Shown here one piece after another: positions 2,292-42,886 of a stretch of 64,000 nucleotides of DNA; position 1 is the first letter of the stretch; each line of letters starts with the position of its first letter. The stretch comes from a virus (Duplodnaviria > Caudoviricetes): positions 911-64,910 of the IMG/VR virus record IMGVR_UViG_3300036801_000104, one strand, 5' to 3'. A program made the position numbers and the translations under genes. The notes below the pieces were generated by a model. The model was not told the origin of the DNA and made no database searches. It was given only the letters and a program-made list of their open reading frames with translations.

Positions 2292-2294
2292 GTT

Positions 2295-3010: not shown

Positions 3011-3014
3011 GCTT

Positions 3015-7502: not shown

Positions 7503-10500
7503 GGAATCGAGTTGACCGCCGTCGGCAGTCCCGGAATGACCACTGTCCGGTCCCAGTTGTTGATCGGCCGTTGGCTGTTATATCCGCCTAGCCGAGGGCC
7601 ATCCCATGCAGCCAGCGAATTGGCCACATTGTATCCAGCGATCTTTAGGCCAATAATTCTTTGCCCGCCATATTCCATATAATTGATCGATGAATATCCA
7701 ACACCGGTATTGGCGGTGTTGTCGTATGTCAAGCGCAGCTTCAGTGTATAGGCGTTCGTATTCGCGATGGCCACGCCGTTGCTGGTGTAGCCGGTAAACG
7801 CTTGGCCAGCTACCGGGCATTGCGACGGAAACGCGGTGTGATCGGCCGAAGTGCATTGTATATAAAAGGTGTGGTTCTGGCCGTTGACGTTGGTCACAGG
7901 ACCAATGATAGAGTAATAGCGGTTTCCAGCTAGCTGGTCGATCGGCCCAGGAGCAAAGAAGCCATGATATCCCGTCATCGCCATCACTTGATCGCCGACC
8001 GTGACGATATAGGTGCCGACCGACCACTGGCCGCCCGACAATAAGTTAATGGTAGGCACGATACCGAAATCCGAGGCATCTACACCATTGGCATAAAGCC
8101 CGGTGCTTCCCTGCTGCGAGGTCACAGAGCCATCGCCGCCATTGTTGATGGCCGAAGAGTAATAATAATCGAAGCAATAGTACGGCATCGCCCCCGTCAA
8201 TCGGCTGCCGCAGTTGCCCTCAATATTCCGCTGCCATTGCTTCATCCAGGTGCTGGCTAGAGGCTCATGCAGCCAGGTCAGCATGTTCCACGCCGAGTCG
8301 AAGAGGTAGGTCTCAATAAAAGGCTCGGCGGAAATTCCTTCATAATAGCCGGTTGGCTCGGTGATCGATGTGCTGTAGTTGGTGTTATTGGGGGCGGCCT
8401 GACTCGGGCCGTCCTTGAACCGCAGCCACATCGAATAGTAATGACGGTTTTCTGTTAGAATGTCGTTGTAATACGAGCGCTCGATATCGTTGTCGCCGCC
8501 AAACGCTGCTGGATACGTGACATCGCGCGTCATCCATGCTTGGCCGCGCCCCTGACAGCAGTCTATTAGAATGCCGTAATAGTGATAGGTGTTGCCATCG
8601 GTGAATTTGGCGTTGTTGTCGCGGTAATAGCCTTGGCCCAGCTCCGGACCTGGGCCGGCGCGCTGTTGAGCATAGTCGGCATTGCCACGAAGCCGCATCA
8701 TGTCAAGCCAATGACGGTCACCAAATATCTCATAAGTGATACTGTTGAATGACGGCATATGGCTAATGTAGGTGCCGCTCGTCCATTGGCCGGACGTGGC
8801 TGGGTAATTTGCATTAGGCAGGCTTGCCGGCGGCCCCACCATATTCACCGGACCAAGCCCCGAATATTCTGTTGTCGGCATCGGAGCGCCGAGACCGGCA
8901 TACGTGCCGCCCGTACCGTTGCCCCCAGGCCCGATGGGCGGGCCATTGTTGATCACCGGAATGCGGCCCGTCGCTTCATTGAGGAGCGTCGCATTCCCAT
9001 ATGTCATGTTCCCGAGCGTGAAGAGCCGGGCATAGTCCCAATTTGCTTCGCTGCCGTTTATGAAGGCTTGCGCCGCCCATTCGGAGATGATTCCTAGATC
9101 TGGCCTGTCGCCACCGCCAACGCCGCCGATCACATTGCCTATGGTATTGGGGTTGTAATAGGGCGTATTGCCAGTGCTAGGGTTAGGCGCATAGACATTA
9201 ACAGACTGCGCAAGATCCATTGGTATAATCAAACCAGTCTTTTCCCAATACAGCTTCTCTCCCGAAGTAAAAGCCGGATAAACCTTGCGCGTCACCCTGG
9301 TCGTGGTGCCGACGGGCGACCAGTTGTCCTGATTCGTTTGGTCGAGCAGCAGAACGCTGTTCCAGTGATAATGCTGGACGCGGAAGCCGAATGTTGTCGT
9401 GCCGGTGCCCTGCGATGCAGTCATAAACCGCACCGGCCCATAGGTGTAATTAGGCGACAGCACCAAGGACGATTTAGTCGACGCAGAACCAGAGGTAACG
9501 ATTCCTGTCGGAGCGACGTAATAGAGTTGGTTATTGTTCATCCCGGCGGGGCATGTGCCGGAGCAAGAAGGCCGCACAGCCATTCCGGCATACCATGAAT
9601 TGGCCCCGGTCGCCGTTGGAACGTCCATGCAATATGCATCGCCCCAGCCCCCATAGCACCCGGCGCTTGCGACAGGCTGGATCGGATTGCTGGCGCTAGA
9701 TATCGTCGCGTCCAACCCTGTCCAGTTTAGGACCGACGCCGCGCCGTCGAGGACTTCCGGCTTATACGATATGGACTGCGGATCGTTGGCAAAGCCCGCC
9801 GGCCCTATATTGCCGGCATTGCCCGTGCTGCCTCCCGCGACATTCATCCAGGCATTGTGAATCTCACATACCCACCTGACATCGCCCGGAGAGACCCCGT
9901 CCGAGGCTTGCGTAAAGATATCGATGTTGCACGCCGCATAAAGCAGCGGGTCTTTATTGCCGCTCGTCGCATAGACGAACATGCCGGAGACGACATACTC
10001 GTCATACACATTCCCGGCCCGAATGTGCCGCGGGGCGTCCCGTCCGACGTTCGCGATGTTGTCGCACACCCTAAAGGTCGCATCCCCCGAGTCGCGCACC
10101 GTGTCGGCTTGGTTGCGCACATCGGAGAGATGGATCTTGAGATCGTGCGCCGCGGGACCGCTGCACAGCACCGAGAGCGCCTGCTTAGAGGTCTCCGAAT
10201 AGCTTCCCGCGGTCGCGACGAACTCGACTTGATAGGTCGCTCCATTCGCCAGGCTGTTGGGCAGCCATGCCGACCACACCGCATGCCGCCACGAGCCGTT
10301 GCTGCCGTTCTCGCGCCAGGTGGAGATCTCATCCCATTGCTGGCCAGGCAACGGCGTATGCGTGGAGGCATCGCGGATCACGGGATTTTGGCCGGGCATG
10401 ATGTCGCCATAGCGGAACCCCTGGCCGAAGCTGATAGGCGTGCCTGCCGGGAGTGTCGCGCCGGAGAGATTTTGGAATGTGAAGGTCGTCAGGAGGCCCG

Positions 10501-12076: not shown

Positions 12077-13269
12077 TATGATGTCCTCGGGCTCAGCCAA
12101 CACATGCCGAACATAGTGCCGGCAGCAGGAAATAGCTTAATTCCAGTAGTGGCCTGGGATGTAGTCAACGGGCCGACGCCTGCTACAGTCAGCAATTGCT
12201 CCGCCGCGGAGCCGGTATCAAATGACCGCGTTACGGCGTGGATATCGTTTGAGAACCCCATGCCGGTGCCGAATGAGAAGCTCAGGTCTATATCTAATGT
12301 AGCTCCGTTATTGGTGCCTGTAGGAAGCGGAGAAGAAAGCAAAAATCCGTTGGATGGCCCCCCATCAGCCGTGCTAACCCAAAGATCACCCGGACTGATA
12401 ACGTTGCCGGACAGCTGGAGTATATAGCTGTAGCCGGCCGTCTGAAATGTCCCAGCATACGCCAGCTGCAGGGTTATTCCCCCCGATGCCGTCTGCAATC
12501 CCACCCCGCTGCACGCCAAGTGCAGGCGAGGATAGCCGCTCAACCCAAGCCACTGGAAAGAACTCACGGAAGCGCTCGACGCAGCGCTCTGATACCATGT
12601 GCCGGGAAGGAAGCCTGACGCCACATAATTGTTGCTGGGGTTGGCTTGGAGGCATACTTCGCCGCCAGGATAAAGCACGATCTGGCCGCCCGTTACCGCT
12701 GGGTTGCCATTGACTACCCCGGCCGCGCCAGAAATCGTTGAGGTTGTCGCCGTGATCGTCATGAGCGCGGTGCCGTTGTTTTTGAAGCATGACCCGTGCC
12801 CAGGCGGAAAGACCGCCTGCGTGAGGGTCGTGCTCCCGACTGTCTGTGAATTATTCACCGTCCAGGTCGTCCCGGAGCCAGCGGTGACGTAGGTATTGTC
12901 AAGCACCCCGAGTCCAGTGATGACGGAACCAATCGTGACGGCATTAGATGGCGTTGAAAGCGTAGTGCCCGAGATTGACCCAGTGAAAGTTGATACTACG
13001 CTTTGCGGCATCGTATAAGTCGCGGCGGAGGCGCCGGCAAACACCAGGGTCGCAAAGTCGTCGCTCGCCCTTGTGGTGCACCCGGTCGCAATGCTGTTCC
13101 TATATACCACGCTGTAAGAGCCCGCGGCCGGCGAGCAGATCGGCGCGTTGAGGTCGAGGAGTTCACCCTGCAGGCTCATCGACATGCCCGGAACAATGCG
13201 CTGTCCGGACTGGTCGGCATAAGCGTGCGAAGCCGCGAGGATCAGAGCGAGAGCAAGCCAACGTCTCAT
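12076..13269 (-). CDS. Secreted fibre-tip-like beta protein
   Basis: MRRWLALALILAASHAYA signal; FTGSISGTTL...GTTWTVNNSQTV module; C-terminal ATTGIKLF as in tail-fibre tips. Confidence 0.6.
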   Translation of the reverse strand: MRRWLALALILAASHAYADQSGQRIVPGMSMSLQGELLDLNAPICSPAAGSYSVVYRNSIATGCTTRASDDFATLVFAGASAATYTMPQSVVSTFTGSISGTTLSTPSNAVTIGSVITGLGVLDNTYVTAGSGTTWTVNNSQTVGSTTLTQAVFPPGHGSCFKNNGTALMTITATTSTISGAAGVVNGNPAVTGGQIVLYPGGEVCLQANPSNNYVASGFLPGTWYQSAASSASVSSFQWLGLSGYPRLHLACSGVGLQTASGGITLQLAYAGTFQTAGYSYILQLSGNVISPGDLWVSTADGGPSNGFLLSSPLPTGTNNGATLDIDLSFSFGTGMGFSNDIHAVTRSFDTGSAAEQLLTVAGVGPLTTSQATTGIKLFPAAGTMFGMCWLSPRTS

Positions 13270-16200
13270 GGCACTGTCCTCAAAGTAGTAGCGCTCTTGA
13301 CAATGAAATGCCCGCACTGGTTGGCCTGTACGGGAATGCCCACGCCAGCCGCCTGATTATTGATAAAGTGCGCAGTGGTATCTGGGTAGACCAGCAGCGC
13401 GTTGTTCGCGTCTTCGTTGCAAACATACAGATGATTGAAGGCCACCATTAGCGCGGCATCAAACCGCACAGCCGCCGTACCGGCGCAGCCATTTGCGAGG
13501 GTCGTGCAATTCGCGCCGCTCCCGACATAATTCTGCTGGGTCGTAAGGTCGGTCGCCGTTCCCAGCGTCGTGCCCGCGGCGGTGACGCCGGTTGTTCCAG
13601 TGTCATTGGTGGCTCCCCCACCCGTGCCGCAAGACCCTGTCAGGAGGACGACCACGTTGCTGGCATTCAAACCTAGACAGGAAACCTGCGTCCCCGTAGC
13701 AAGCCCCGTTGCTGTGATCGCGCCGGTGGCCGTCAGAGTCGTGAACTTGCCGGCTGCCGGAGCTGTTGCGCCGATGGACGGAGGCGAGGCGAGATAAGTG
13801 CTAAAGCCGGTCCCGGATACGGTGCTTGATGCTGAAAGGGTCGTGAAGGCGCCGGCTGCTGCCGATGTCCCACCAATTGCAGGGGGAGAGGCCAGGTAAT
13901 TACTAAACCCTACCCCGGAAATTCCGGCTGACGCGGATAATGTCGTGAAAGAGCCTCCCGCTGCGGCTGTGCCGCCGATAGCCGGCGGTGACGCCAGATA
14001 CGTCGAGAAGCCAGTACCTGATACTGTGGAGCTGGCCGCAAGCGTCGTGAATGATCCTGCTGCCGCAACGGTGCCGCCGATCCCCGGAGGGGATGCTAGG
14101 TAGTTGCTAAACCCAACCCCGGTTACCGCTCCGGAAGCCGAGAGCGCGGTAAAGGAGCCGGCCGCCGATGTGGTCGCTCCGATTGCCGGAGGAGAAGCGA
14201 GGTATGTGCTGAAGCCAGTCCCCGATACCGCGCCAGAGGCCGACAGCGTCGTGAATGCACCGCCCGCAGGCGCAGTCCCACCAATAGCCGGTGGGGACGC
14301 CAAGTATGTGCTGAAGCCAGTTCCCGAGACGGCACCGGAAGCCGACAGCGTCGTAAACGCGCCAGCCGCAGGGGCCGAGCCGCCGATAGCAGGAGGAGAG
14401 GCTAGGTAAGTCGAGAAGCCGGTGCCCGATACAGTGGAGCTGGCCGAGAGGGTGGTGAACGCGCCTCCCGCTGGAGTCGTGCCGCCGATCGCCGATGGTG
14501 CCGCCCAATTGATGATCGCATTCGACAAGAGGCCGGTTCCGAGCGTCTCTGCGATGGTGCTGTTCCCGGTCGTTCCGACTGGCAGCCCTACATTGCTCAG
14601 GGTATCTGTGCCTGTCCAGAAGGGGATGTTGTTGACAGTGGATGTCCCAGCCGATGTAACGCTTCCCCCGCCGAGACAGGAGCCAGCAACCCAAGCGCCA
14701 GCCGACCCGATGATGCAGTCGCCATTGACGGGCACGATCCCCGCCGGAGTGTTGGTGCCGTTAGAGACAACGATGTCGCCGCTCGTAGGCCAGGTCGGAG
14801 CACTGCCGGCGGTGTTGGTAAAGTCGAGAATGACTTCGATCGGGAAGGAGCCACCCGCGGCATTGGTCGATAGGACATTGCCGATCGTTTGGACGCCAGC
14901 GGGCCGCGTCGCCCCGCCGTCATGGCAGTTGCCGGCTACGGTAGAGCTAAGGACAACGAAATGGCCGGCCGTTGTCGCACCGTCAAAGGTGCATGAAGCC
15001 TGGCCGTGGATGGCGATTTGGGCACTGCCGGTGGTTCCGGCGCCACCGATGACAACCCCTATAGCGGCGTCGGTATCGCTGACGAGCGTCGTCAATGCCG
15101 TTGATGGTGCGCCGGAAAACTTCGCGACTAGCCCTGCGGTCGTGCCGCCGGTCCCGGCGTTCGGGATTTCGACGGCGATGGCCTTAGAGGTAAAGTCAAA
15201 GTGCTCGCTGGTGCTGACGATGGTGCCGTTGTCCGTTAGGCCGGAAACAACAGGCGAGCTTGCGCCGTTTCCTTTATAGATCGCGTTAGCGGTTTGGGTA
15301 GTAAGGCCGGTCCCTCCATTTGCGACTGTGAATGGGGCTCCGAGAAGCGTCAGGACGCTCGCTGTCGAGCACAGCGAAGGCACGCTCGACCCATTAGTAC
15401 AGAGTATCGAACTGGCTGCTGATGGGAGAGCCGCCCATGCTCCGCCTGTCCCGTAAACCAGATCATTGTTGACCGGCGCGAGAGCCCCAGGGGTATTGGT
15501 GGTGTTCGAGACGACTATGCTGCCGGATGCGGGCCACGTCGGTGGGCTGCCCGCGGTATTTGTGAATTCGGGGCTGAAAACCATCGCATAGGAGCCGGCG
15601 CCGCCCCCATTCGTGGCGAGCACGCGCCCGATTACCTGCGCCCCGCCTGGCCGCGTGCCGGACGCGGTATCGTGGCATTTCCCGGCGACGGTCGTGCTGA
15701 TTACGACCCAGTCGCCCGCCGTGGTCGATCCGTCAAACGAGCAATTTGCTTGGCCGCCAACAACGATCTGGGCGTTCCCGGTCGTCCCGCCCCCACTAAG
15801 AACCACACCGATCGCGTTATCGGTATCGCTCGTCAGGGCCGTCAGAGCCCTTGATGGAGCACCCGATAGCTTCGCCAGCAGCCCGTTTGTGGTGCCACCA
15901 GATGATGCATTTGCGATTTCGATTACTTGACTTTGATTGGTAAGGTCGAGCGGTTCAGTTGTACTGACTAGCGCGCCGTTATCCGATAGGCTCGATACGG
16001 CCATATTCGCCGTGCCGGCACCTTTGTAAATCGCACCCGTGGTTAAGGTGGCGAGGCCGGTGCCGCCATTGGGAACCGAAAACGGAGTGCCCAGAACACC
16101 TAGGATGGTGGCGGCGGCGCCATAGGAAACTTGATTTGCTGAAGAAATATAAGGGATTGTATTCGTCAGAGGCGTCGCCGGATAGGATACCCCGTTCACC

Positions 16201-17117
16201 TTCGAATTCGTTACCGTGATCGCAGTCGTACCCATGCCCGACGCGTCGCCGCCGAGAGTGATTGTCTGGTTGCCCGTCAGATACCCCAGGATACCTTGCA
16301 TCGTGGTCGGCGAGCACATCGACAATATGGAGGTAGAATCAACGCAGGGGACCGAACTCGCCACCGGAGCCAGCGCCGTCCATGCATTGCCCGTCCCATA
16401 GACCAAACTATTGTTGACCGGCGCAAGTCCGGAAGGTGAGTTCGTGCTGTTGCTGATAACGAGGCTGTCCGCAGCGGGCCAGGTGACATTGCCGCTTGCC
16501 CCGCCCGACGCATTCAGCGTCGTGCCGCCACCGCTTAGGGTCAGATTTGTGCCGAGCGTGATTGCCCGCAGATGTCCGGACGGATCTGTGCCGAGCAACG
16601 GTGCCATGGGTAGACCGGAGACAGTCACGGCACCAGACAGAGTCGGGGCTGATAATGTCGGCGCGGCCATCGGCGCATAACCCTGCGCCTGGACGTAGGC
16701 TGTCGTCGCGATCTTCGTGGTGTTGTCCGCCGTGGTTGGGGTCGGGGCGAGCGGTGTGCCGGTAAAAGTCGGTGAGGCGAGCGGCGCAAAGCCGGGGATC
16801 GTCAGCCCACTCGGCAGCGTTATGCTGGGCGTCGGCACGCCTGAGCCATTGAACGTGAGGATGCCGTTGTTGACCCCGGTCAGCGGCCCAATGGCATTGA
16901 GCCCGATGTAAACCCCGAGCTGAGTGGCGCCGTTGGCGATCGAGCCCGACGAGAGAGCCGTGCCGCACGTCAGAGCCGTACCATATGCCGTATAGCCGAG
17001 GTTTGAGTTGCCGCCGCCGCAGGCTGGAGCAGCGAGCGGGCCGGGCGGTTGCACCACTTGGCCGGCGTTTGCCGTCGCCGCCCATACCAGCGCTAGGACA
17101 GCGAGTATAATTCTCAT
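13266..17117 (-). CDS. Long tail/head fibre-like protein with a signal peptide
   Basis: MRIILAVLALVWAATANA; APLASPTFTGTP..DNTTKIATTAYV fibre motif; two DUF2190/cement-like domains; 34-aa repeats. Confidence 0.75.
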   Translation of the reverse strand: MRIILAVLALVWAATANAGQVVQPPGPLAAPACGGGNSNLGYTAYGTALTCGTALSSGSIANGATQLGVYIGLNAIGPLTGVNNGILTFNGSGVPTPSITLPSGLTIPGFAPLASPTFTGTPLAPTPTTADNTTKIATTAYVQAQGYAPMAAPTLSAPTLSGAVTVSGLPMAPLLGTDPSGHLRAITLGTNLTLSGGGTTLNASGGASGNVTWPAADSLVISNSTNSPSGLAPVNNSLVYGTGNAWTALAPVASSVPCVDSTSILSMCSPTTMQGILGYLTGNQTITLGGDASGMGTTAITVTNSKVNGVSYPATPLTNTIPYISSANQVSYGAAATILGVLGTPFSVPNGGTGLATLTTGAIYKGAGTANMAVSSLSDNGALVSTTEPLDLTNQSQVIEIANASSGGTTNGLLAKLSGAPSRALTALTSDTDNAIGVVLSGGGTTGNAQIVVGGQANCSFDGSTTAGDWVVISTTVAGKCHDTASGTRPGGAQVIGRVLATNGGGAGSYAMVFSPEFTNTAGSPPTWPASGSIVVSNTTNTPGALAPVNNDLVYGTGGAWAALPSAASSILCTNGSSVPSLCSTASVLTLLGAPFTVANGGTGLTTQTANAIYKGNGASSPVVSGLTDNGTIVSTSEHFDFTSKAIAVEIPNAGTGGTTAGLVAKFSGAPSTALTTLVSDTDAAIGVVIGGAGTTGSAQIAIHGQASCTFDGATTAGHFVVLSSTVAGNCHDGGATRPAGVQTIGNVLSTNAAGGSFPIEVILDFTNTAGSAPTWPTSGDIVVSNGTNTPAGIVPVNGDCIIGSAGAWVAGSCLGGGSVTSAGTSTVNNIPFWTGTDTLSNVGLPVGTTGNSTIAETLGTGLLSNAIINWAAPSAIGGTTPAGGAFTTLSASSTVSGTGFSTYLASPPAIGGSAPAAGAFTTLSASGAVSGTGFSTYLASPPAIGGTAPAGGAFTTLSASGAVSGTGFSTYLASPPAIGATTSAAGSFTALSASGAVTGVGFSNYLASPPGIGGTVAAAGSFTTLAASSTVSGTGFSTYLASPPAIGGTAAAGGSFTTLSASAGISGVGFSNYLASPPAIGGTSAAAGAFTTLSASSTVSGTGFSTYLASPPSIGATAPAAGKFTTLTATGAITATGLATGTQVSCLGLNASNVVVLLTGSCGTGGGATNDTGTTGVTAAGTTLGTATDLTTQQNYVGSGANCTTLANGCAGTAAVRFDAALMVAFNHLYVCNEDANNALLVYPDTTAHFINNQAAGVGIPVQANQCGHFIVKSATTLRTVP
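13715..14510 (-). repeat. Seven full plus one partial 102-bp coding tandem repeats (GTGFSTYLASPPAIGGTAPAAGAFTTLSASxxVS)
   Basis: Seen in translation; synonymous codon positions are strongly diverged. Confidence 0.9.
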
Positions 17118-17127
17118 TGGTGCGCCC

Positions 17128-17502
17128 CTACCGATACCAGCAAGTGTAGGTTGTGCCCGCCCCGCTCCCGATAATCGAAATCGCGGGCGGTATCGGTTCG
17201 ACCGGGGAATTCCAGATGTACGTTGTGCCTGGGAAGATGTGCAGCGATGGCGACGCCGTGGTCGCTGTGCCGCTCGCCAAAATGTTTATCCAGATATCCT
17301 GCGTCGCATGAGTGTTCTGAAGCAGCAGATAGGTTTGCGGGCTGGGGAAGCCGGTTCCTGACGATGGGAACACGACCTGAGCGGCGGATGCGCCGGCTGT
17401 GCCCGAACAATTTGAGACCGGCCCATAAACCTGCTGCGCGTCGGCCAAAGAAAGGGTAAGCCATGACAGCGCGAGCGCCGTCAGCAATGCGCGGAGAATC
17501 AT
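17128..17502 (-). CDS. Small secreted beta-sandwich protein
   Basis: Signal ...LSLADA; LLLQN motif; Cys pair. Confidence 0.65.
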   Translation of the reverse strand: MILRALLTALALSWLTLSLADAQQVYGPVSNCSGTAGASAAQVVFPSSGTGFPSPQTYLLLQNTHATQDIWINILASGTATTASPSLHIFPGTTYIWNSPVEPIPPAISIIGSGAGTTYTCWYR

Positions 17503-25776: not shown

Positions 25777-26153
25777 TCGGATAGCGGCGTAGCGTCATAG
25801 GGCAGGCCAGGCGGGATGTAGTCCCCCAGCGCATTGACCGCCTCAAAGTCACCGGCAACGCCGGCAAGAAACTCCACCGTCAGGACATTCCCGACGCTTG
25901 CGCGAAGATCTATCTTGGTGCGGTTCACCAGATCACGACCGCCCGCCGGGATTTCGAGCGTTGACTGAAAGAGGATCGCTCCAGCGCCGGTCGGGCCGTC
26001 GCGCACGACCACGGCAGCGCTTCCCGCAGATGTGCCAGCGAGGGTGCAATACATTGCCCGCAAGCGGGCCTGATACCCCAGGTTCTGGCTTGTCGCCACG
26101 GCGATCGACGCCACTCCACCGGCTGCGCTGCGAGTCGTTACCTGCCATGTCAT
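25773..26153 (-). CDS. Beta-sandwich structural protein, paralogue of the C-terminal domain of 26150..29206
   Basis: True start MTWQV with ATGA overlap; YQARLR..VVRDG..IDLRA..LTVEFL.G shared with the upstream gene. Confidence 0.7.
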   Translation of the reverse strand: MTWQVTTRSAAGGVASIAVATSQNLGYQARLRAMYCTLAGTSAGSAAVVVRDGPTGAGAILFQSTLEIPAGGRDLVNRTKIDLRASVGNVLTVEFLAGVAGDFEAVNALGDYIPPGLPYDATPLSE

Positions 26154-29100
26154 GTAAGATCCTTGGGGTCCTCTCCATACGGGATGCCGAAAGGCACGTA
26201 ATCGCCGTGCGCGCTGATTTGCTGCACGGCGCCTGGCGTCCCGCCCAGGAATTCCACCGTCAAGACGCCTCCAGCCGTCGCGCGCAGGTCGATGTTGTTG
26301 AAGTCCAGAACATCGCGGCTGTTGGCTGCGGTATAGAGATCCGCTTCGAATATGATCTGCCCCACCCCTAATAAGCCATCCCGCACAACCATCGTCGCCA
26401 TGCCAGCCGAGCCCCCGGAAACCGTCAAATACAGGGACCGCAAGCGGGTCTGATAGGTTTGATTCGGCCCAAGGCCGATGGCGAGCGAGGCCGCCGCCCC
26501 CGCAGGAGCTGTGCCGCCGCCAACCCAGACCGGACCAGGCTGGCCTGGGATCGTAAACGCCCGGAGAACAAGGTTCTTCTCGGCGTACCGGACGAATTGG
26601 TACGGCCTGAGTTCCGGCCGCAAAAACAACTGGCTGCCAACCGGGCGAATAGCCGGCGGTGCCAGCGTGGACTGGAGGAGATTGCGCTCCGCGCCACGGA
26701 CGAATTGGTATGGCCTTAACTCTGGGCGGCCAGATGACTGAGTCCCCGCGAGCCTCGCATCCTGGCTGCGCAGGGTCGTGAGAACGAGGTTGCCAGCCTG
26801 AGACCGGTCCGGTTGCGCCGCACTCTTGGGAAGCGGCCAATCGTACTGCGCGAATGGCGTCGCCAGTATCAGGAACTGAACCTGGACATTCCAGGCCCAT
26901 GAGCGCGCCGGCGGCGTCTGGATGCGCGGTAGATCGTAGACTTGCGAGCCTACAAGCCGTGCGTCCTGCCCGGCCAGCGTCGAACTAACGAGGGCCTGTA
27001 TCCATGTTTCGTCGATCCTGGCGGCCACTTTGGGCACCGGCCAATCGTATTGATTGAACGGGACCGGGTTTGCCGTAAAGAGGACGACTGGGCTCTGCGA
27101 TATCCACGATCGACCGAACTGCGACGGCCCTAACGGCGGCCTGTCGGATACCTGCTGACCGGCCAGCCGCGCGTCTTGGCCCGCCAGCGTTGTCGTAACG
27201 AGAGACCCGACCCAGGTCTCGTCTATGCGCCCCGCAACCCTCGGGTTCGGCCAATCATACTGATTGAACGGGACCGGGTTCGCTGTGAACAGGACGATCG
27301 GAGACGAGCCTGTCCACGATCTGACGAACTGCGGCGAACCGGACGGCGGATTGCCGAATGATTGATCGCCGGCAAGGGTTGCGTCCTGCCCGACGAGGGT
27401 CGTGCTGACAAGGTTCTGCGCCCAGCTCTCGTCGATGCGCTGGGCGACCCTTGGGCTGGGCCAATCGTATTGCGCAAAAGGCTGCGGCGGTATCACCACC
27501 GCGTAGGCAAAAAAGCTGTTCTGCGCCTGCCGATACCATGCGGGCCACAACGGGGGATCGTACTGTTGCCTGCCGACCGGCCTCGCCGCCGCTGCGACGG
27601 CTAATGTGCTGGTTTGCCCGGACCAACTATAGAACCGATCCGGCTGAACCGTTGCCGGCCCCAGAGCAAACGACTGCTCGCCAGAGAGCGTAGCATCTTG
27701 GCCGCGGAGCGTCGTTTGCAGCAGATTGCTGCCGGCTCCCGGTACGAGCGGGGCCGCGCCTTGCGGTAGCGCGAACCATTGGTCGCCGGGCGGGAGCGAT
27801 GGCACACCTGCCAGCAACGGCTGGTAGGACTGCGCATAGAACCGACCTGGCGAGACCGGGACTGCCGAACGATCGAATGACTGTTCGCCGACCGGCAGCG
27901 GAAAGGTTATGCCGGACTGACCGTAGAACCGGCCCGGCTGCGCCCCGACGATCGGCAGGGCGAAGGACTGCTCACCGACGAGCACCGCGTCCTGGCCCGC
28001 GAGGGTCGTAAGGACGAGGCTGCTAGCCGCTCCCCTGATGAATTGGGGAGGACCAAGATCCTGCCGGGCGGTGACTTGGTCGCCCGCCAGCGTCGCATCC
28101 TTGCTACGGAGCGTCGTCAGGACGAGGTTGCAGGACGCCGATCGGACGAATTGCGCCGGCCCGAGATCTTGCCGGGCCGAGACCTGATCGCCGGCAAGGG
28201 TTGCGTCCTGCCCCGCGAGGGTCGTCAGGAGTAGATTGTATCCGCCGCCTTGGCTCGGCTGGGCTGCGCTTTTCGGCAGCTCAAACCATTGATCGCCTGG
28301 CGGCGCCGCCGCCGCAACCGCAGCCGACGCCAGCAGTGCAAGCGGCGACCCATTTGCTGTTTCGCCGGGCGGGTCAACAATCCACCGCCGTACCCATAGC
28401 GGCTTGCGGAATATTGCGTCCGGCGGGACCAGCGTTAGATAATTCGGGGTGCCGTCTTGGGACCGACGAGATATTCCCGTCGGGTCAGTTTCCCATCGCC
28501 TCGTATAAAGTAGAGGACGAAGGGTAACCGGAGAAGCCGGCGTGTAGGTGATAACAATGAGGCCCGCCTGACCGGCACCAACAGTGCCGCCGGCCGCGGT
28601 GCCGTGCGCACCTCCGCCTCCACCATAGAGGCCGCCCGCAAACCCATTCCCCGTAGAGGTGGCACCCGCACCCCCTGCGCCACATCCGTGCGTGCCATCG
28701 AATTCTGTGCCTGACGCCCCGGCTCCGGCACCGCCCGCTACGGTGCTTGAATCGGCGTTGCCGCCGGTAACACTTGTCGCATTGCTGCCTGCGCCATTTG
28801 GGCCTGCCGCACCGCCGCCGCCCCACGCTACGCTTGTTGTACTATGACCTCCATTGCCGCCATTGAAATGTGTGGTATTAGTGCTGCCCGTTCCCCCGAG
28901 ACCGGTGCTCCCCGCCACCCCGGTAACGCCGTGGTGAGCGGTGATCGTGATGCCGCCCGCAACGATCGAAGTGTTGGTCGTCCCGCCCGCGGTTCCTACG
29001 GTGCAAGATGTGCCGTCCGCGAGGGTGAGAGCGCCGGTTTCGGCGGCATACTCGCCGCCGCCGCCGCCCGTGCCCGCGATCGAGGAAGAGCTTCTTAGTG

Positions 29101-29206
29101 AGCCATTGCCGCCGGACCCAAGACACTCAATCTGGTCGGCCTGCCCCGGCCAATCGCTTGGCGCAGTAAATGTTCCGGTGCCGGCTAGGATATAAAAGAT
29201 CGCCAC
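26150..29206 (-). CDS. Glycine-rich domain plus extended repeat protein (putative virion scaffold/fibre)
   Basis: N-terminal Gly-rich domain; about nine NLxxTTLxGQDAxLxGxQ and four PFxQYDWP repeats. Confidence 0.7.
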   Translation of the reverse strand: MAIFYILAGTGTFTAPSDWPGQADQIECLGSGGNGSLRSSSSIAGTGGGGGEYAAETGALTLADGTSCTVGTAGGTTNTSIVAGGITITAHHGVTGVAGSTGLGGTGSTNTTHFNGGNGGHSTTSVAWGGGGAAGPNGAGSNATSVTGGNADSSTVAGGAGAGASGTEFDGTHGCGAGGAGATSTGNGFAGGLYGGGGGAHGTAAGGTVGAGQAGLIVITYTPASPVTLRPLLYTRRWETDPTGISRRSQDGTPNYLTLVPPDAIFRKPLWVRRWIVDPPGETANGSPLALLASAAVAAAAPPGDQWFELPKSAAQPSQGGGYNLLLTTLAGQDATLAGDQVSARQDLGPAQFVRSASCNLVLTTLRSKDATLAGDQVTARQDLGPPQFIRGAASSLVLTTLAGQDAVLVGEQSFALPIVGAQPGRFYGQSGITFPLPVGEQSFDRSAVPVSPGRFYAQSYQPLLAGVPSLPPGDQWFALPQGAAPLVPGAGSNLLQTTLRGQDATLSGEQSFALGPATVQPDRFYSWSGQTSTLAVAAAARPVGRQQYDPPLWPAWYRQAQNSFFAYAVVIPPQPFAQYDWPSPRVAQRIDESWAQNLVSTTLVGQDATLAGDQSFGNPPSGSPQFVRSWTGSSPIVLFTANPVPFNQYDWPNPRVAGRIDETWVGSLVTTTLAGQDARLAGQQVSDRPPLGPSQFGRSWISQSPVVLFTANPVPFNQYDWPVPKVAARIDETWIQALVSSTLAGQDARLVGSQVYDLPRIQTPPARSWAWNVQVQFLILATPFAQYDWPLPKSAAQPDRSQAGNLVLTTLRSQDARLAGTQSSGRPELRPYQFVRGAERNLLQSTLAPPAIRPVGSQLFLRPELRPYQFVRYAEKNLVLRAFTIPGQPGPVWVGGGTAPAGAAASLAIGLGPNQTYQTRLRSLYLTVSGGSAGMATMVVRDGLLGVGQIIFEADLYTAANSRDVLDFNNIDLRATAGGVLTVEFLGGTPGAVQQISAHGDYVPFGIPYGEDPKDLT

Positions 29207-29242: not shown

Positions 29243-29623
29243 TTATTGCGTGGCCGTGATGGTTACATTCTGCACCGTTCCGCCATCTCCTGACAGATCG
29301 CAGTTCACGACTAGATTTAAGCTGCCGTCGACCGCAAAACATCCACCGTCATTGCTGTAGGGCGAGCCAAACCCTACAGTGCCAGTGAATGTGGAGCCGT
29401 TATTCCATAGAGGTATAATTCGACCAACTATAGTGCCGATGGCCGCGTTGGAAGGAATGACTGGGCTGGCCGGATTGAGGGAAACCGATAGCGTGAGCGG
29501 TACGGGAACGACGACTTGAGCGTTTGCTACGCTAAACCAGCCAGCGACAAGCAATGCCGCCGTGCCGAAACTAGCGCCAGAAGCCATGAAAATATATAGG
29601 AGGCAGTGCAAATGCTTGTCCAC
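29243..29623 (-). CDS. Secreted single cadherin-like domain ending at ITATQ
   Basis: Leader ...SVANA; DGGCFAVDG...CDL; paralogue of 35337..35666; start uncertain. Confidence 0.7.
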   Translation of the reverse strand: MDKHLHCLLYIFMASGASFGTAALLVAGWFSVANAQVVVPVPLTLSVSLNPASPVIPSNAAIGTIVGRIIPLWNNGSTFTGTVGFGSPYSNDGGCFAVDGSLNLVVNCDLSGDGGTVQNVTITATQ

Positions 29624-33261: not shown

Positions 33262-35340
33262 TTATGGCACCACTGAGGAAGTCGCCGCGCTGATGTTATT
33301 AGCGCTGTCCATCGTCCACAGGTAGACCGTGCTGCCGTGCGTGACGGCCAACGACTGAGGCGGCAGGTAGCTCCACGCTAATCCCGTACCGGACTGCCCG
33401 CCACTGGTTGGCCTCGTCGACGAGGTCGAGGCAAGCCACTTAACCGCGCCATACTGGGCCGTGAACGTCGCCGTGCTGAACGGCACCACCGATCCCGACA
33501 GCGGACCCAGCGTAAATGCGGCGGTCGGCGCTGTATTGAACCCGGACGTATTGCATCCCGAGAACGTGCCGCCAGAGCAAAAGTTGGTGTTCTGCGTAGG
33601 GGTAACGGTGTTGGAATCGGTGAGATATTGGACTGTTGGCGCGCTGAAATAGTTTTTCGTGGCGGAGCAGTTGACGCACTGCATGTCGCCGTTGGTGTTT
33701 CCGCCCCCGCAATCTGCCGGCCCTGTGCCAGAGTTGTTGCTTGACGAGGGATCTGGACACCCATTACCCCGGAAATCGATATTTGCACTCGTTGAGCCGA
33801 CAACACTATTGTTGGTGAACACTATATTATTAACTTGCATTCCCGGGCTGGCGCTGACGCCAGACGGTCCACAGCCCTCACCGTCGATGCCACCGCGCCA
33901 CTCGCACGAGCTAAGAAACGCGGCACCGGCAGATAACCAGTTGCCGGTAAACTCCATATCATTGACAATGCCGTTTGTATGCGGATCGTTGACCCCACCA
34001 CCTATTGCACTGTTATTCGTGCCGGTTCCAGCGCTGCCGTTATTCGACATGCTAAAGTAATTATTCGTATTGAAGAAATGGTGGCTTCCATCTGTCTCGC
34101 TCGTGCCGCCACCAGCATAACAAAAGCCAGGGCTGCATCCCGACCACCCGTATCCTGCTGCAGCAACGCTACACGCTACATTGTCGCACCCATAGAATAC
34201 ATAGTTTGCTGTAAACGTTATATTATCTACTACAATATTATTTGGAGTTTCCCCAAGGAATATATTGTTCTTTATAAGGCCATCGTGGAATTCCTGATAT
34301 TGAATTGTCTCTCCGGAGGCATAAAAGCCTCCGCTAGCCGGCATCGCATCTACTGAGTTCAATAGCGTGAAATTATTCGAATCGCGTACCCAAAACTGAG
34401 CATTGGGGCCGTTGAACCCCAGGTATCGTATATCATTAACGGTCGCGTTGGGACAGCTCTGAAAATTAAGCGTACCGTTGTAGTCACCATCTTCGCTCCA
34501 TGCCGTTTGCGACTGGGCGAGGGAACCATCGACGTATATGTGCGATACGGTCGGAACTGGACTGCCGGAAGCGCATCCGAATGTACCAAGCGAGTCGTAG
34601 TTACCGAATACTATATAACCACCACCCATGCCACTCGTGCCGCTCGTATAGACACGCGTAACGGTCCCTCCCGGCGCTACAGTCCCGACCGGTCCACCGC
34701 TCCCATTGTTGGGGTGCCCAAGATAGTCGAAGGTGTTGCCGCTTCCAGCACCTACCAAGTTGATTGATTTATTGCCGGTTATCACGCGCGCATTGGCGAT
34801 CTTAAGCTCCCAATTGCCCGCGGCCAGGAAAATGGTATCGCCGTTTGATGAGGCGTTTATCGCGGCCTGAATACAGGCGGCTTGCCACGGACTGCCGCTT
34901 GAGCCATTGCCGCCGCCGTTCGCCGAGCAGAAGCTCGCCGCGGCGTCTCGCCGGGTGCCGGACACAGTGACGGTAGCTGAAGCGACGATCCCGCCGCAAT
35001 TAACGGAATAGGTCGTCGTGGACGTGGGAGAAACAATCTTTGATCCGATACCAGCCGAGCCCGAGCCATCGGTCCCCGTCCCCGTGCAGGAGCCGGCGCC
35101 AGCAGAATCCCAAGTCAGTGTGGCTGAGCCGCCATTTGGGATGGTGGTATTAACCCCTGAATTGAGCGTTGGCGTACCCAAATTAGTGGCAGAAAGATAA
35201 GCGCTAGGGGAGCCGCCGGATGACAATATGGTGATCGCCAAGTTTGCCGAGGCAGACGCGGCCCAGGAGACTGCCGGCTCCAGCAGCGCAATTAAAGCAA
35301 CAAGAATGAGCGATAAGCGAAGCATCAACAGTATCCTCAT
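33262..35340 (-). CDS. Secreted Ig plus parallel beta-helix (pectin-lyase-like) protein
   Basis: Signal ...AVSWA; ATLTW..VSPTSTTTY Ig; GSSGSPW..IQAAINA..GDTIFLAAG beta-helix cap; many Cys. Confidence 0.75.
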   Translation of the reverse strand: MRILLMLRLSLILVALIALLEPAVSWAASASANLAITILSSGGSPSAYLSATNLGTPTLNSGVNTTIPNGGSATLTWDSAGAGSCTGTGTDGSGSAGIGSKIVSPTSTTTYSVNCGGIVASATVTVSGTRRDAAASFCSANGGGNGSSGSPWQAACIQAAINASSNGDTIFLAAGNWELKIANARVITGNKSINLVGAGSGNTFDYLGHPNNGSGGPVGTVAPGGTVTRVYTSGTSGMGGGYIVFGNYDSLGTFGCASGSPVPTVSHIYVDGSLAQSQTAWSEDGDYNGTLNFQSCPNATVNDIRYLGFNGPNAQFWVRDSNNFTLLNSVDAMPASGGFYASGETIQYQEFHDGLIKNNIFLGETPNNIVVDNITFTANYVFYGCDNVACSVAAAGYGWSGCSPGFCYAGGGTSETDGSHHFFNTNNYFSMSNNGSAGTGTNNSAIGGGVNDPHTNGIVNDMEFTGNWLSAGAAFLSSCEWRGGIDGEGCGPSGVSASPGMQVNNIVFTNNSVVGSTSANIDFRGNGCPDPSSSNNSGTGPADCGGGNTNGDMQCVNCSATKNYFSAPTVQYLTDSNTVTPTQNTNFCSGGTFSGCNTSGFNTAPTAAFTLGPLSGSVVPFSTATFTAQYGAVKWLASTSSTRPTSGGQSGTGLAWSYLPPQSLAVTHGSTVYLWTMDSANNISAATSSVVP

Positions 35341-35666
35341 TGTGTTGCCACGGCGGTTATGTTTTGGACCGTTCCGCCATCTCTTGTTAGATCGCATGCT
35401 GTGATTACGTTAAAACTTCCGTCGATCGCAAAACATCCGCCATCGCTAAAGTTGGGCGGACCGAACGCTACGACTCCGGTAAACGGGCGCCCATTACTCC
35501 ATCTCGGCACGATTTGGGCGATGATGGTGCCGCCTGGGGAGTTAGGCGGAATGCTTGGGGCGGGCGGCACAAACGAAACCGACAGAGTCGGCCCGGCGCC
35601 ATGCGAGTGGTTCGCCGCTCCAACCGGCGTAATCGCCGCCATAATAACTAGCGCCAGATATTTCAT
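35337..35666 (-). CDS. Secreted single cadherin-like domain ending at AVATQ
   Basis: Short leader; paralogue of 29243..29623; ATGA overlap with the next gene. Confidence 0.7.
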   Translation of the reverse strand: MKYLALVIMAAITPVGAANHSHGAGPTLSVSFVPPAPSIPPNSPGGTIIAQIVPRWSNGRPFTGVVAFGPPNFSDGGCFAIDGSFNVITACDLTRDGGTVQNITAVATQ

Positions 35667-35909: not shown

Positions 35910-36644
35910 TTACGGTCCGAAGCCGGTTTCGGGTACGTTGTACGGGCCGATCAGCGTCAGCCGATCATACGGCGCTATGTCGAGGATTGCCGTTCCGCCA
36001 TCTCGGGCGACCAGCATGTCCAAGCGATAGTCGAATTCGTCCTTTTCCACGCTGTAATCGAGCCCCAGGCGATGCAGCAGCCGCCAGATGACCCCAAGCT
36101 CAAGGACGCTCTCGTCGAGCAGCGAAACATCGGTATCTGCGACCCAGTCTGGCTGCGTCACGTTGGCCAGCGAAATGCACCAGTTCCGCGAGACGTACTC
36201 ATAGACGAAGGTTGATGTCGTATCCCCGGTTATCGGCGGGTCGATCTCGAACTGCACCGTAGCGCCAGCCGGGCTTCCGCTCGGTAGGCGCAGCCGCCAT
36301 CGGCGCTCGATCGTGGCGCGGCCGATAATCGAAGACTTGAACAGCTGCCATTGCTGGGGCGACATCGCGCCGCGCATGCGCCAGAACCTCGACCGGTCCC
36401 ACAGCGTGTCGTTGACGAGCGAGCGGAAATCAGCCGGAAGCGTGTAATCGGACGTGCCGTTCGCGACGAACACGTGTTCGACCGTGAGCGCAGTCCAGTT
36501 GACGCGCTCGGCCATGTCCCGCCCCGTGCGCCGCGCCATCTGCAACAGCCTTGCTGCCGCAGGATCGGCGTTCCCGATGATCGATGTCGGGACATTCACC
36601 CCGGCGTCGTTTGCGGCGTTCTGGCAGATCGAGAGAAGACTCAT
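35910..36644 (-). CDS. Tail tubular protein A / head-tail adaptor
   Basis: MSLLSICQ..., YTLPADF and EYVSRNW..ADTD; synteny. Confidence 0.8.
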   Translation of the reverse strand: MSLLSICQNAANDAGVNVPTSIIGNADPAAARLLQMARRTGRDMAERVNWTALTVEHVFVANGTSDYTLPADFRSLVNDTLWDRSRFWRMRGAMSPQQWQLFKSSIIGRATIERRWRLRLPSGSPAGATVQFEIDPPITGDTTSTFVYEYVSRNWCISLANVTQPDWVADTDVSLLDESVLELGVIWRLLHRLGLDYSVEKDEFDYRLDMLVARDGGTAILDIAPYDRLTLIGPYNVPETGFGP

Positions 36645-41966: not shown

Positions 41967-42305
41967 CTAACTAGATCTCGCAAACGCCCGGACGACAGCC
42001 ATGATATCTTGCTTGGGAGACAGCAATTCACCGCATGTGTGGGTATGCCACAAAACCCGATCCGGCGGAATCGTTGGCTCAAGAGCAGGGACAACAGATC
42101 GCTCGATATCCTCTTTCGACCGTCTTTGCTGCTCGCTTAACATCGATTGAACATCTGCATGATATTCCGGAGGGGCATCGCAGGCGCCCGCTATAGTCCC
42201 CCTAAGATCCCGATTGGCCATCAGATACCAGATCAGTATTGAGTCGCCCCATGGCCTCATCAGGGTTGCGTCCCATAAATCGTGAACGGCTCGACTGTGT
42301 TGCAA
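41967..42305 (-). CDS. Hypothetical protein
   Basis: ORF in the operon; start uncertain. Confidence 0.45.
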   Translation of the reverse strand: MQHSRAVHDLWDATLMRPWGDSILIWYLMANRDLRGTIAGACDAPPEYHADVQSMLSEQQRRSKEDIERSVVPALEPTIPPDRVLWHTHTCGELLSPKQDIMAVVRAFARSS

Positions 42306-42886
42306 TTTGCCTTCGTGATGCCGGTCGGGCCGATGACGAGTTTATCGCCGCTAATCGCAAGATCGGTCGGCGCCGGTGCCCCAAATGTATAGGTGACCGG
42401 TTTCCCGTTCCCGCCTGTTATGCCCATCGTCATTATCACTCTGCCGGGAGCCCACGCACAATCGGCCATTACTCCTGTGACGCCAACCCGTAATGGAGCT
42501 ACCGAGATTTCGGCGCTTTTAGCGGGAGAGGTCCAGCTGTTGTTGGTAAAAAACCTGACTTCGTACTGCCCAGGTTGTGTCGGCACAACAAGGTGCACAG
42601 TCCCGGATGTAACGCCCGTCGCGGGAAAGCCGGTCGCCAGATCGGTCGAAAGCCACTTCCACGACAGCCGCCGGCTGGTCTGGGCAACCGCGCCAACAGC
42701 ATAAACCCCGAGCCAATCCCCCCGATTGCCTGGACCTCCGGTCACCGTGGCAGAGATTGCAGCGCCTGCCGGGACCGTCAGCGGACCTCCGCTAGGTGGG
42801 CCACTAGCAGTCACGGTCGGAGCGGCATGCGCCGAGTAGGCCCCCAGAGCGAGCGCAGCAATCGCCACACCGAGGGCTCTATTCAC
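42260..42886 (-). CDS. Secreted two-domain Ig protein; C-terminal cadherin-like domain ends at GTQP
   Basis: Signal ...SAHA; DWLGVY..PGQYEVRFF Ig; LAISG.KLV...FTIYGTQP. Confidence 0.7.
   Translation of the reverse strand: MNRALGVAIAALALGAYSAHAAPTVTASGPPSGGPLTVPAGAAISATVTGGPGNRGDWLGVYAVGAVAQTSRRLSWKWLSTDLATGFPATGVTSGTVHLVVPTQPGQYEVRFFTNNSWTSPAKSAEISVAPLRVGVTGVMADCAWAPGRVIMTMGITGGNGKPVTYTFGAPAPTDLAISGDKLVIGPTGITKANCNTVEPFTIYGTQP

Follow-up and report, generated by a model that had tools for sequence, protein, structure and literature searches.

A candidate donor-strand joint between two adjacent, putatively exported proteins of a phage of soil Alphaproteobacteria

Introduction

In this phage of soil Alphaproteobacteria a small protein with a predicted cadherin-like fold (gene A) ends before the last strand of that fold, and the next gene (B) overlaps it and encodes a strand-like segment directly behind a signal-peptide-like leader. 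The locus raises the question of whether the second protein supplies the strand that the first one lacks. As judged from the evidence given below, with a probability of about two in three, the products of A and B are exported separately via Sec and together rebuild one cadherin-like β-sandwich in trans. The strand-less domain is termed here the socket and the donated strand the plug. Both genes sit in the tail module, directly after an SU10-type adaptor gene. An odd trait of the phage is that many of its late, tail-region genes bear export leaders.

Positions in Table 1 and in the text are those of the window, that is, the whole stretch of 64,000 nucleotides that was analysed. Signal peptides were called by eye from basic residues, a hydrophobic core and an AxA-like site.

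Table 1. Candidate sockets, plugs and the genes that carry them
Feature	Position	Strand	Description
Gene A, socket	35337..35666	-	109 aa; leader (aa 1-18) and 86-aa cadherin-like domain without G strand
Gene A, domain part	35340..35597	-	Terminates NITAVATQ-TGA
Gene B, leader	35260..35340	-	Signal-peptide-like, judged by eye; aa 1-27, MRILLM...AVSWA
Gene B, plug	35218..35259	-	aa 28-41; predicted mature N-terminus ASASANLAITILSS, then GG
Gene B, remainder	33262..35217	-	Ig-like module (~aa 43-147), then right-handed β-helix (~aa 150-692)
Gene C, second free socket	29243..29623	-	Leader and domain, ITATQ-stop; no adjoining plug gene
Gene D	42260..42886	-	Secreted, 208 aa, IYGTQP-stop; marginal family match
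Gene E	5649..7502	-	Leader, plug, possibly GH16-like domain and C-terminal domain; overlaps F by 4 bases
Gene E, second plug	7389..7433	-	aa 24-38; predicted mature N-terminus ASVSAPLTLSVTVSS, after leader MTSMRIAG...SVAWA
Gene F	7499..12076	-	1525 aa; leader, three cadherin-like repeats with cis G strand, then ~1000 aa
A-like insert in F	10970..11200	-	F aa 293-369, ends SITATQ, in loop of repeat 2

Results

Predicted fold of the gene A product

The reading frame of gene A opens with a leader-like segment and closes with NITAVATQ followed by TGA. The AF2 model of the domain (66-sequence alignment, pLDDT 96.7, pTM 0.84) contains six strands (residues 5-10, 25-33, 42-45, 56-58, 63-66 and 82-85); a run with three sequences only (pLDDT 37.7) was discarded and the 66-sequence run was used instead. 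The confidence with which AF2 folds this domain without a G strand tells nothing about stability in either direction. All 40 Foldseek matches listed and all 50 VIA-align matches listed for the model are cadherin-type EC domains (cadherin, protocadherin, CELSR, Fat or desmocollin). None of the listed Foldseek matches reached E ≤ 0.001 (E 0.05-0.5), and the best VIA-align match among those listed was 7t80_A (Z 8.3, rmsd 2.6, 82 aligned). In the 102-residue chain of Cdh23 EC1 (2wbx), residues 3-87 pair with residues 1-86 of the model (Z 7.2, rmsd 2.9, 82 aligned), so that the last 2wbx strand has no counterpart. These structural matches of a predicted model are middling and indicate a resemblance in fold to EC domains that does not imply family membership; Pfam detected neither Cadherin (PF00028) nor any other family in A at E ≤ 0.1. 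The reading frame and the fold comparison bear out an earlier note on this DNA, according to which protein A stops at ATQ, has no G strand and is cadherin-like.

Pfam and PHROGs searches with A, B, C, D, E, F and three neighbouring genes gave nothing useful. A word-indexed search with A as query matched only A itself, and an exhaustive profile search was needed to find its relatives.

Gene B and its N-terminal strand

The ATG of gene B, at 35340, overlaps the TGA of gene A as ATGA, and its reading frame runs in the order MRILLMLRLSLILVALIALLEPAVSWA, ASASANLAITILSS and GG. The overlap, the leader, the isolated strand and the GG had all been described correctly before, but the β-helix had been placed immediately after the GG; in that place an Ig-like module of ~100 aa is found, and the β-helix begins only at ~aa 150. 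Comparison of B with Beta_helix, NosD and pectate-lyase-like clusters gave ESM Atlas features of 0.90 and structure TM values of 0.45-0.56, and the β-helix is probably a glycan-cleaving enzyme; gene B has no Pfam match. Among the homologues of B (n=41), at least 11 start with a leader and a plug.

A recoding event or a broken gene at the A/B junction was considered and rejected: B carries its leader in a different frame, and equivalent splits at other loci involve TGA, TAA and TAG stops.

Predicted structure of the A:B complex

Residues 19-109 of A and 28-150 of B were modelled together with ESMFold2 in three runs, with controls. The pair scored 0.66 (0.64, 0.69 and 0.66 in the single runs) versus 0.14 for the best control, with a contact agreement between runs of at least 68% and a partner pLDDT of at least 54; of 78 solved complexes 51 attained this mark, as did 2 of 108 mismatched pairs. 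The predicted interface is wholly formed by residues 28-42 of B, packed against residues 96-109 and 27-41 of A, with the B strand lodged between the last and the first strands of A. Its register is antiparallel to the F strand (A107-B30, A105-B32, A103/104-B34 and A101/102-B36). The modelling of A alone and with the N-terminus of B, suggested in the earlier note, returned the strand of B in the G position of A. A predictor may also complete a strand-deficient sandwich with a β-prone peptide from its memory of pilins.

Strand-less and fused relatives

The exhaustive search with a profile of the A domain retrieved 441 proteins at E ≤ 1e-3. Among the best 150 of these 441, 72 stop exactly at ATQ, the last position of the profile, 6 end one residue past it and 23 carry exactly 11 further residues. 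Relatives that continue past ATQ do so with a loop and a B-type strand, such as GATTASANIAITVTAG or NGVTVSGSIAVQVT. A position matrix for the G strand was built from 52 cis segments following ATQ; when each of the 40,168 positions in the window ORFs was scored with it, the N-terminus of E ranked 2nd and 3rd and that of B ranked 4th. Judged by sequence, the shared ATQ endpoint and these ranks exceed chance, and the strands at the predicted mature N-termini of B and E are supported as counterparts of the G strand that fused relatives carry in cis.

Fused forms were found as single chains: P0033 joins domain, strand and GH16; P0081 joins domain, strand and the enzyme that is found split in locus L010; and P0152 joins a lectin-like domain, complete repeats and a B-like enzyme (59% identity). 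The socket proteins of relatives also carry a DUF4082 or lectin-like module, the DUF4082 standing behind its own leader. The 11-aa cis-tail subfamily yielded six loci, with a clear cis tail in L025 only, and offers no usable control. Sockets and plugs were further sorted by eye (ATQ, AVQ or AIE endings; NLAI or VPI plugs), and the idea of a covariation between socket end and plug type was dropped because AVQ sockets join both plug types.

Other candidate sockets and plugs in the window

The arrangement recurs in the window. As the earlier note had described, complete repeats run from ATQ into a G strand: three such repeats, each made of ATQ, loop and strand, are present in F (ATQ at aa 206, 394 and 503), a protein with no Pfam or PHROGs match. 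The insert in its second repeat is similar to A (BLASTP E 2e-8), and the layout reported for F and E, with SITATQ in the insert, the short gene overlap and the strand at the N-terminus of E, was found as stated. By its sequence E bears the same plug type as B, and the candidate partners of this plug are the orphan socket C and the F insert. Pfam gave no match for E, which possibly carries a GH16-like domain, as a weak BLASTP similarity to the Pfam GH16-bearing P0033 suggests (E 4e-4 over 33 aa).

The two further G-less domains that had been proposed fared differently. Over the domain, C shares 58% identity with A; its only Pfam hit, DUF2759 at E 0.079, is at chance level, and the gene downstream of it (26150..29206) has no leader. 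D is marginal: hmmsearch within the window ORFs places profile positions 21-85 of the family on its final 62 aa (146-207) at E 0.0018, with the match ending one residue ahead of the stop, and hhalign gives a probability of 6%.

Gene neighbourhood in related DNA

Related loci were searched with a 7-sequence subset of short family members, and pairs of socket and plug genes were found in related phages as well as in MAGs of Alphaproteobacteria and on contigs from soil metagenomes. Among the viral loci that could be evaluated, a plug gene directly follows the socket at 6 of 10; it does so at all 5 strand-less MAG loci. In the pooled, deduplicated set, a gene with leader and plug lies right after 24 of 63 evaluable strand-less domains; at the other 39 the position is taken by a leader-bearing ORF without the motif (17), an ORF without leader (12) or no ORF (10). 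Some of these 39 loci are tandem socket arrays or detector misses, e.g. L007. Because no adjacent plug gene was detected at them, the domain may also work alone. The plug core is present in 18 of 41 leader-bearing ORFs beside sockets versus 3 of 127 leader-bearing ORFs elsewhere, which served as control (Fisher p 2.4e-10), and the plug is 32-fold enriched beside sockets. The co-occurrence of socket genes with genes for leader and strand, which the earlier note had singled out as a check, is borne out by these figures. The plug counts are rough: L007 and E escape the detector, and the 24 positives include a doubtful locus (L076, offset 269); a stricter first detector (regex and 9-residue hydrophobic run) missed L047, L049, L066, L100 and L107, and the looser one was used.

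For B, for E and for the 24 plug-positive loci alike, the plug opens right at the predicted cleavage site, and its sequence and its place directly behind the leader are conserved across unrelated enzymes. Both partners bear leaders of the basic-hydrophobic-AxA type at all loci read, among them chromosomal ones on MAG contigs of up to 2.6 Mb.

Discussion

A probable strand donation in trans and the alternatives

The reading that we favour would proceed as follows. Signal peptidase would cut off the 27-residue leader of B, exposing ASASANLAITILSS as its N-terminus. This strand would settle between the F and A strands of the six-stranded A domain, antiparallel to F, in the site held by the G strand in complete domains. 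The outcome would be a non-covalent heterodimer, with a small Ig-type module placed on the N-terminus of a β-helix enzyme, formed one-to-one, without polymer and without a PapD-type chaperone or usher. As the sockets of relatives carry DUF4082 or lectin-like modules, the joint would hold a sugar-cleaving part and a probable sugar-binding part together, in parallel with the covalent linkage of the fused single-chain relatives.

Gene fission could have left the same arrangement with no reassembly at all: the six-stranded domain would be self-sufficient, the strand would belong to the protein that follows or be a flexible leftover, and the adjacency of A and B would reflect only their single-gene ancestry. 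This is unlikely, although several observations agree with it, namely the 39 of 63 strand-less domains with no plug gene detected downstream, socket C in the window without a plug gene, the pLDDT of 96.7 reached by A without the strand, and the A-like domain within a loop of F, whose two ends must therefore be near each other. A functionless leftover would, however, decay, whereas the plug keeps its sequence and its post-leader position across unrelated enzymes and is 32-fold enriched beside sockets; moreover, the cis forms use this segment as the final strand of the domain, and a model with clean controls sets it in the G position.

The position of the genes directly after the SU10-type adaptor gene, a slot kept in a related phage, together with the tailspike-like β-helix of B, would fit tail-fibre parts that keep their leaders uncleaved and are joined in the cytoplasm by a split Ig fold, for which the Tuc2009 BppU-BppA pair (PMC4742702) is a precedent. 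If A and B were virion parts, their export would be hard to reconcile with this slot. We consider a virion joint quite improbable in view of the leaders on both partners in all loci read, chromosomal MAGs included, of plugs that always start at the predicted cleavage site, of DUF4082 modules lying behind the socket proteins' own leaders, and of the lack of an alternative start codon behind the hydrophobic segment of B. It is harder still to credit a pilus-like fibre that polymerises by donor-strand exchange from subunits bearing both plug and socket: its appeal lies in a general likeness to chaperone-usher pilins and TasA, but a plug-like N-terminus was found in 0 of 150 family proteins examined, in A and in C no additional strand precedes the first one of the domain, and the phage genome gave no PapD_N or Usher match at E ≤ 1.

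Comparison with known systems

Chaperone-usher pili (Fim, Pap, Caf1, Saf) are built by donor-strand complementation and exchange of Ig-type folds that lack the G strand. The predicted A/B joint resembles them in that another exported protein would complete, with a strand at its N-terminus, an Ig-type fold without its C-terminal G strand; the predicted strand is antiparallel to F, the orientation that pili show after exchange. It differs in that cadherin EC domains, not pilins, come closest in fold, the cargo is an enzyme, and no PapD-like chaperone or usher is present in the 64,910-base phage record (PF00345, PapD_N, and PF00577, Usher, without match at E ≤ 1). Since A is socket-only and B plug-only, a 1:1 joint is expected and not a polymer as in these pili. 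In cohesin-dockerin pairs a calcium-dependent helical dockerin binds an intact cohesin sandwich, joining secreted enzymes to binding or scaffold modules non-covalently. The likeness to them is functional, a small dedicated plug and socket that would couple a secreted enzyme and permit module exchange; there is no homology, and the plug would here itself be one of the strands that make up the socket fold.

In TasA of Bacillus subtilis, residues 28-38, directly behind the cleaved signal peptide, are the donor strand that completes the β-sandwich of the next secreted subunit, and the N-terminus of TapA is predicted to complement TasA heterotypically (PMC9674648). TasA is a jellyroll homopolymer that self-complements as monomer (PMC9674648). 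The plugs of B and E likewise stand directly after a predicted signal-peptide cleavage site; unlike in TasA, the acceptor is cadherin-like and truncated at a stop codon, two different proteins take part and no polymer is expected.

In Tuc2009, a hairpin of BppU completes the Ig-like (titin-like) β-sandwich of BppA, attaching a carbohydrate-binding accessory protein (PMC4742702). The two cases share a phage origin and a short β segment of one protein that completes the sandwich of another. The Tuc2009 donor is a C-terminal 25-residue hairpin, and assembly is cytoplasmic, on the virion baseplate and with no signal peptides (PMC4742702); in contrast, the donor here would be an N-terminal single strand and both partners have leader-like N-termini. 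No sequence relation to BppU or BppA was found, Pfam and PHROGs being empty for A and B. Given this precedent, the statement that nothing of the kind had been described in a phage was too strong; the parts of the donor-strand reading that are supported are the G-less fold, the G-strand match, the A+B model and the recurrence of the pairing. For exported or cadherin-like trans-strand joints in phages, a survey of the open-access literature at the level of search results returned none.

Implications

At one related phage the same locus shows a module swap, and this single case is the basis of the putative "mix-and-match" assembly. A wider reading, which we put forward only tentatively and hold to be doubtful, is that of a widespread chaperone-free docking, in which Alphaproteobacteria and their phages combine interchangeable sugar-binding socket modules with interchangeable secreted plug enzymes. 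Orphan sockets, such as C and those of host chromosomes, would then be docking sites for plug enzymes encoded elsewhere, and phage enzymes could hang on sockets that the host makes, or host enzymes on phage sockets; this would amount to a natural non-covalent system, SpyTag-like or cohesin-dockerin-like, operating via strand complementation.

If the A/B joint forms, it would be a compact, chaperone-free, one-to-one assembly of two exported proteins through a socket of 86 residues and a plug of 14, and a possible natural peptide-tag/catcher pair for periplasmic or secreted proteins. Donor-strand complementation would then reach beyond fibres into the coupling of enzyme modules. It would account for more than 400 protein clusters so often stopping at the same residue, and would give a rationale for module swaps at one locus of related phages. 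The joint also bears on the odd export leaders of late, tail-region genes in this phage.

Organization of the A/B gene pair

The 64,910-base IMG/VR virus record, of which the window covers bases 911-64910, is rated complete by CheckV, and all the genes treated here lie on the minus strand. Gene A encodes a socket protein, that is, a cadherin-like domain that stops at ATQ without a G strand, and its ATG overlaps the stop of a small Gln-rich gene, itself preceded by a gene whose Pfam match to SU10_adaptor points to a podovirus-type head-tail adaptor. The A/B cassette thus starts two genes downstream of the adaptor gene, and this neighbour, together with the start/stop overlaps, places A and B in a tightly coupled late operon.

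The product of the next gene, B, comprises a leader (MRILLMLRLSLILVALIALLEPAVSWA), a G-type strand directly behind it, hereafter the plug (ASASANLAITILSS), a GG, an Ig-like module of ~100 residues and a right-handed beta-helix beginning near residue 150. The helix is assigned from ESM Atlas features (score 0.90) and structure clusters (TM 0.45-0.56 to Beta_helix/NosD/pectate-lyase-like clusters); B has no match in Pfam. The ATQ-stop, the ATGA overlap and the succession of leader, strand and GG read from the sequence in the earlier note were all confirmed, and its GG linker and beta-helix are both present, although the Ig-like module between them had been left out.

Features of the proposed socket/plug system in the window
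Feature	Position	Strand	Description
Gene A	35337..35666	-	109 aa: leader-like N-terminus and 86-aa domain, end NITAVATQ, then TGA
Gene B start	ATG at 35340	-	overlaps the A stop as ATGA
SU10_adaptor gene	35910..36644	-	Pfam E 3.3e-9, 37.9 bits (cut-off 27)
Gene C	29243..29623	-	58% identity to A (tblastn); end ITATQ-stop
Gene F	7499..12076	-	1525 aa with leader; three repeats, ATQ at aa 206, 394 and 503
A-like insert of F	aa 293-369	-	inside loop of repeat 2; BLASTP against A, E 2e-8
Small aromatic module in F repeat 1	11528..11779	-	contains …TSDGTWTWGTAASGRPGEY…
Gene E	5649..7502	-	four-base overlap with F; leader, then ASVSAPLTLSVTVSS
Gene D	42260..42886	-	marginal match to 66-sequence family profile, E 0.0018 among window ORFs

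The socket domain and its missing strand

With 66 family sequences, AF2 modeled the A domain as six strands (pLDDT 96.7, pTM 0.84; with three sequences, pLDDT 37.7). A Foldseek search of the PDB gave no match at E <= 0.001; those listed were only cadherin-type EC domains, all weak (E 0.05-0.5). VIA-align placed residues 1-86 of the model on residues 3-87 of the 102-residue Cdh23 EC1 chain 2wbx (Z 7.2, rmsd 2.9, 82 aligned), the final strand of which has no counterpart, and Z reached up to 8.3 (7t80_A, rmsd 2.6, 82 aligned); since Z values under 8 are commonplace, these alignments indicate a likeness of fold to cadherin EC domains, not membership.

A word-indexed sequence search with A returned nothing beyond A itself; a profile of the three domains of this genome, run exhaustively through HMMER, retrieved 441 cluster representatives at E <= 1e-3 (182 at E <= 1e-10). 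Among the best 150 of these, which were re-scored, the chain ends at the last profile position in 72 (47 of them in ATQ), one residue beyond it in 6, and exactly 11 residues beyond it in 23, as in ...ASQGSQSLSMKFSI. This pattern of end positions rules out contig truncation as the source of the shared ends, and the codon after the Q was a stop (TGA, TAA or TAG) in every locus inspected. DUF4082 is frequent on socket proteins: of the 10 scanned, 4 match it with E 1e-37 to 3e-40.

Chains that run on past ATQ add a short loop and then an alternating strand (GATTASANIAITVTAG, NSTTVSASLDIAVT, NGVTVSGSIAVQVT). When an ungapped matrix from 52 distinct post-ATQ segments of this same-chain (cis) kind was scored at all 40,168 positions of the window ORFs, an unrelated protein ranked first, the leader/mature junction of E second and third, and that of B fourth. 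The strands at the N-termini of B and E are thus counterparts of the cis G strand, a match that extends to the SA-N/P-L-x-I/L-x-V/I pattern.

Other copies in the genome

A tblastn search with A found three places: A itself, C and a stretch inside the large secreted protein F (42%). Of the further G-less domains proposed earlier, C stands and D is marginal, its alignment joining profile positions 21-85 to residues 146-207 of 208 with an hhalign probability of 6%. The repeats of F run from ATQ through a 7-residue loop into a strand (e.g. ATQAGVGNSPFSKAFTLVG). The A-like insert lies in a hairpin loop, which needs both its ends together and so fits a six-stranded domain; the equivalent loop of repeat 1 holds a different, aromatic module, which also recurs straight after socket domains in P0041, P0045, P0010, P0012, P0113 and P0119. 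By adjacency, the insert would be the partner of the plug protein E. It falls, however, in a subfamily often carrying an 11-residue cis strand, and the segment after its own ATQ might serve as its G strand.

Directly after E lies a multi-pass membrane protein (4912..5649, minus strand) matching no Pfam family, with a 35%-identical homologue (L006:5754-6377, E 2e-32) downstream of the socket/secreted-enzyme pair of that related locus; it may belong to export or modification of socket and plug proteins. Three more late genes with leader-like N-termini occupy 12076..17502 (minus strand), one encoding a 1283-residue protein with tail-fibre-like repeats that contains …FSTYLASPPAIGG… many times. A probable lysis block at 1737..3049 (minus strand) encodes a 184-residue protein and, after it, two small proteins whose leaders are lipoprotein-like (…LAGCAGG, …LAGCASD).

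Predicted A:B joint

ESMFold2 modeling of A 19-109 with B 28-150 gave a score of 0.66 (runs 0.64, 0.69 and 0.66), the best of three controls reaching 0.14, with a contact agreement between runs of at least 68% and a pLDDT of at least 54 for the partner and 72-74 for the other chain. At this level 51 of 78 solved complexes pass, as do 2 of 108 mismatched pairs; an older blind test also passed 7 of 44 neighbouring genes. The confident interface is limited to B 28-42, facing A 96-109 in antiparallel register and A 27-41, so that in the model this segment occupies the place of the G strand, between the F and A/A' strands, as the earlier note had anticipated for the N-terminal peptide of B. Because the PDB contains donor-strand complexes the pass may partly reflect known structures of that kind; the model shows a likeness to a donor-strand joint and lends support to the predicted binding. 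We put at about two in three the probability that A and B join by strand complementation.

Neighbourhoods of socket genes

Viral contigs provided 11 related loci, one cut at its end, with ten evaluable strand-less sockets. A leader-plus-plug gene directly follows in six (L004, L005, L007, L008, L010 and L011, the last with a B homologue), mostly through an ATGA or GTGA overlap and with plugs such as ATATKNLAINIT, ASVSKNLGILVT and ASVTKNLAITVT; it is absent in L009, L013 and L014, and L006 is ambiguous. There, a 915-residue beta-helix-type enzyme (L006:1508-5760) ends in a strand-less socket, and it and the next secreted protein have similar post-leader segments (QLFNIASF... and QLLNLTHSS...), which may represent either another kind of plug or chaining. 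Species-representative genomes yielded nine loci, eight in Alphaproteobacteria MAGs and a weak Planctomycetia match (L023, left out); a plug gene lies downstream in 5/5 strand-less MAG loci, the other three being fused forms. Metagenome contigs contributed 80 loci.

Pooled and collapsed by identical C-termini, these gave 72 strand-less sockets, nine with <300 nt downstream and hence 63 evaluable. A plug gene follows 24 (one doubtful), a leader-bearing ORF without the motif 17 (several being the next socket of a socket-socket-plug array), an ORF without leader 12, and no ORF 10. Tandem arrays of two DUF4082-type sockets and one plug gene occur in metagenome and MAG loci (L047, L058, L072, L017 and L042), where one plug protein may be common to several sockets. 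Scored with this detector, which is crude, 18 of 41 leader-bearing ORFs starting right after a socket stop contain the plug core, compared with 3 of 127 others drawn from those loci and the window (Fisher p 2.4e-10). The co-occurrence that the earlier note proposed to test is thus strong but far from universal, and orphan sockets, C among them, are frequent; its donor-strand interpretation is partly supported, by the G-strand correspondence, the modeled joint and this enrichment, with the incomplete association on the other side.

Module exchange and fused forms

L004, a 65,305-base IMG/VR contig, is syntenic with the window (adaptor 86%, 250-residue protein 74%, Gln-rich protein 58% identical). 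Its A/B slot (L004:2157-6400) encodes a 265-residue protein with a lectin-like domain and a socket 65% identical to the A domain, followed by a 692-residue plug protein with a different enzyme, without a BLASTP match to B at 1e-5. Judged from sequence, this slot is the single case of modules swapped around a conserved joint and the sole evidence here for the proposed 'mix-and-match' assembly.

Single chains unite the same parts. P0033 (414 aa) runs from leader and domain through GAAQSSSNLSIQVTQG to a Pfam GH16 domain and is weakly similar to E (E 4e-4 over 33 aa). P0081 (901 aa) joins an N-terminal part, domain, strand and an enzyme that in L010 is a separate gene opening with a leader and ASVTKNLAITVT. 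P0152 (1209 aa) combines a lectin-like domain with complete repeats and a B-type enzyme (59% identity over 82% of B). Cis and trans forms, the latter with the strand supplied by a separate protein, interconvert inside one large family.

Comparison with known systems

None of the best 150 of the 441 family proteins has a plug-like N-terminus, and PapD_N and Usher found no match in the phage genome, which argues for a one-to-one joint, not a pilus. The principle is common to chaperone-usher pili, TasA and, among phages, Tuc2009. Published accounts place the TasA donor strand (residues 28-38) straight behind the signal peptide (PMC9674648), and have the titin-like sandwich of the CBM-bearing BppA of Tuc2009 completed by the C-terminal hairpin of BppU (PMC4742702). 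The earlier view that nothing of the kind was described in a phage is too strong as regards the principle; for the A/B type, a proposed exported cadherin-like trans-strand joint, the open-access listings searched gave no description. What distinguishes A/B is that both partners, by their leader-like N-termini, would be exported and leader cleavage would create the plug; that the acceptor has a cadherin-like fold and terminates at a stop codon; that the cargo is an enzyme; and that the family alternates between cis and trans. The predicted A/B joint is, in these respects, a new form of donor-strand complementation.
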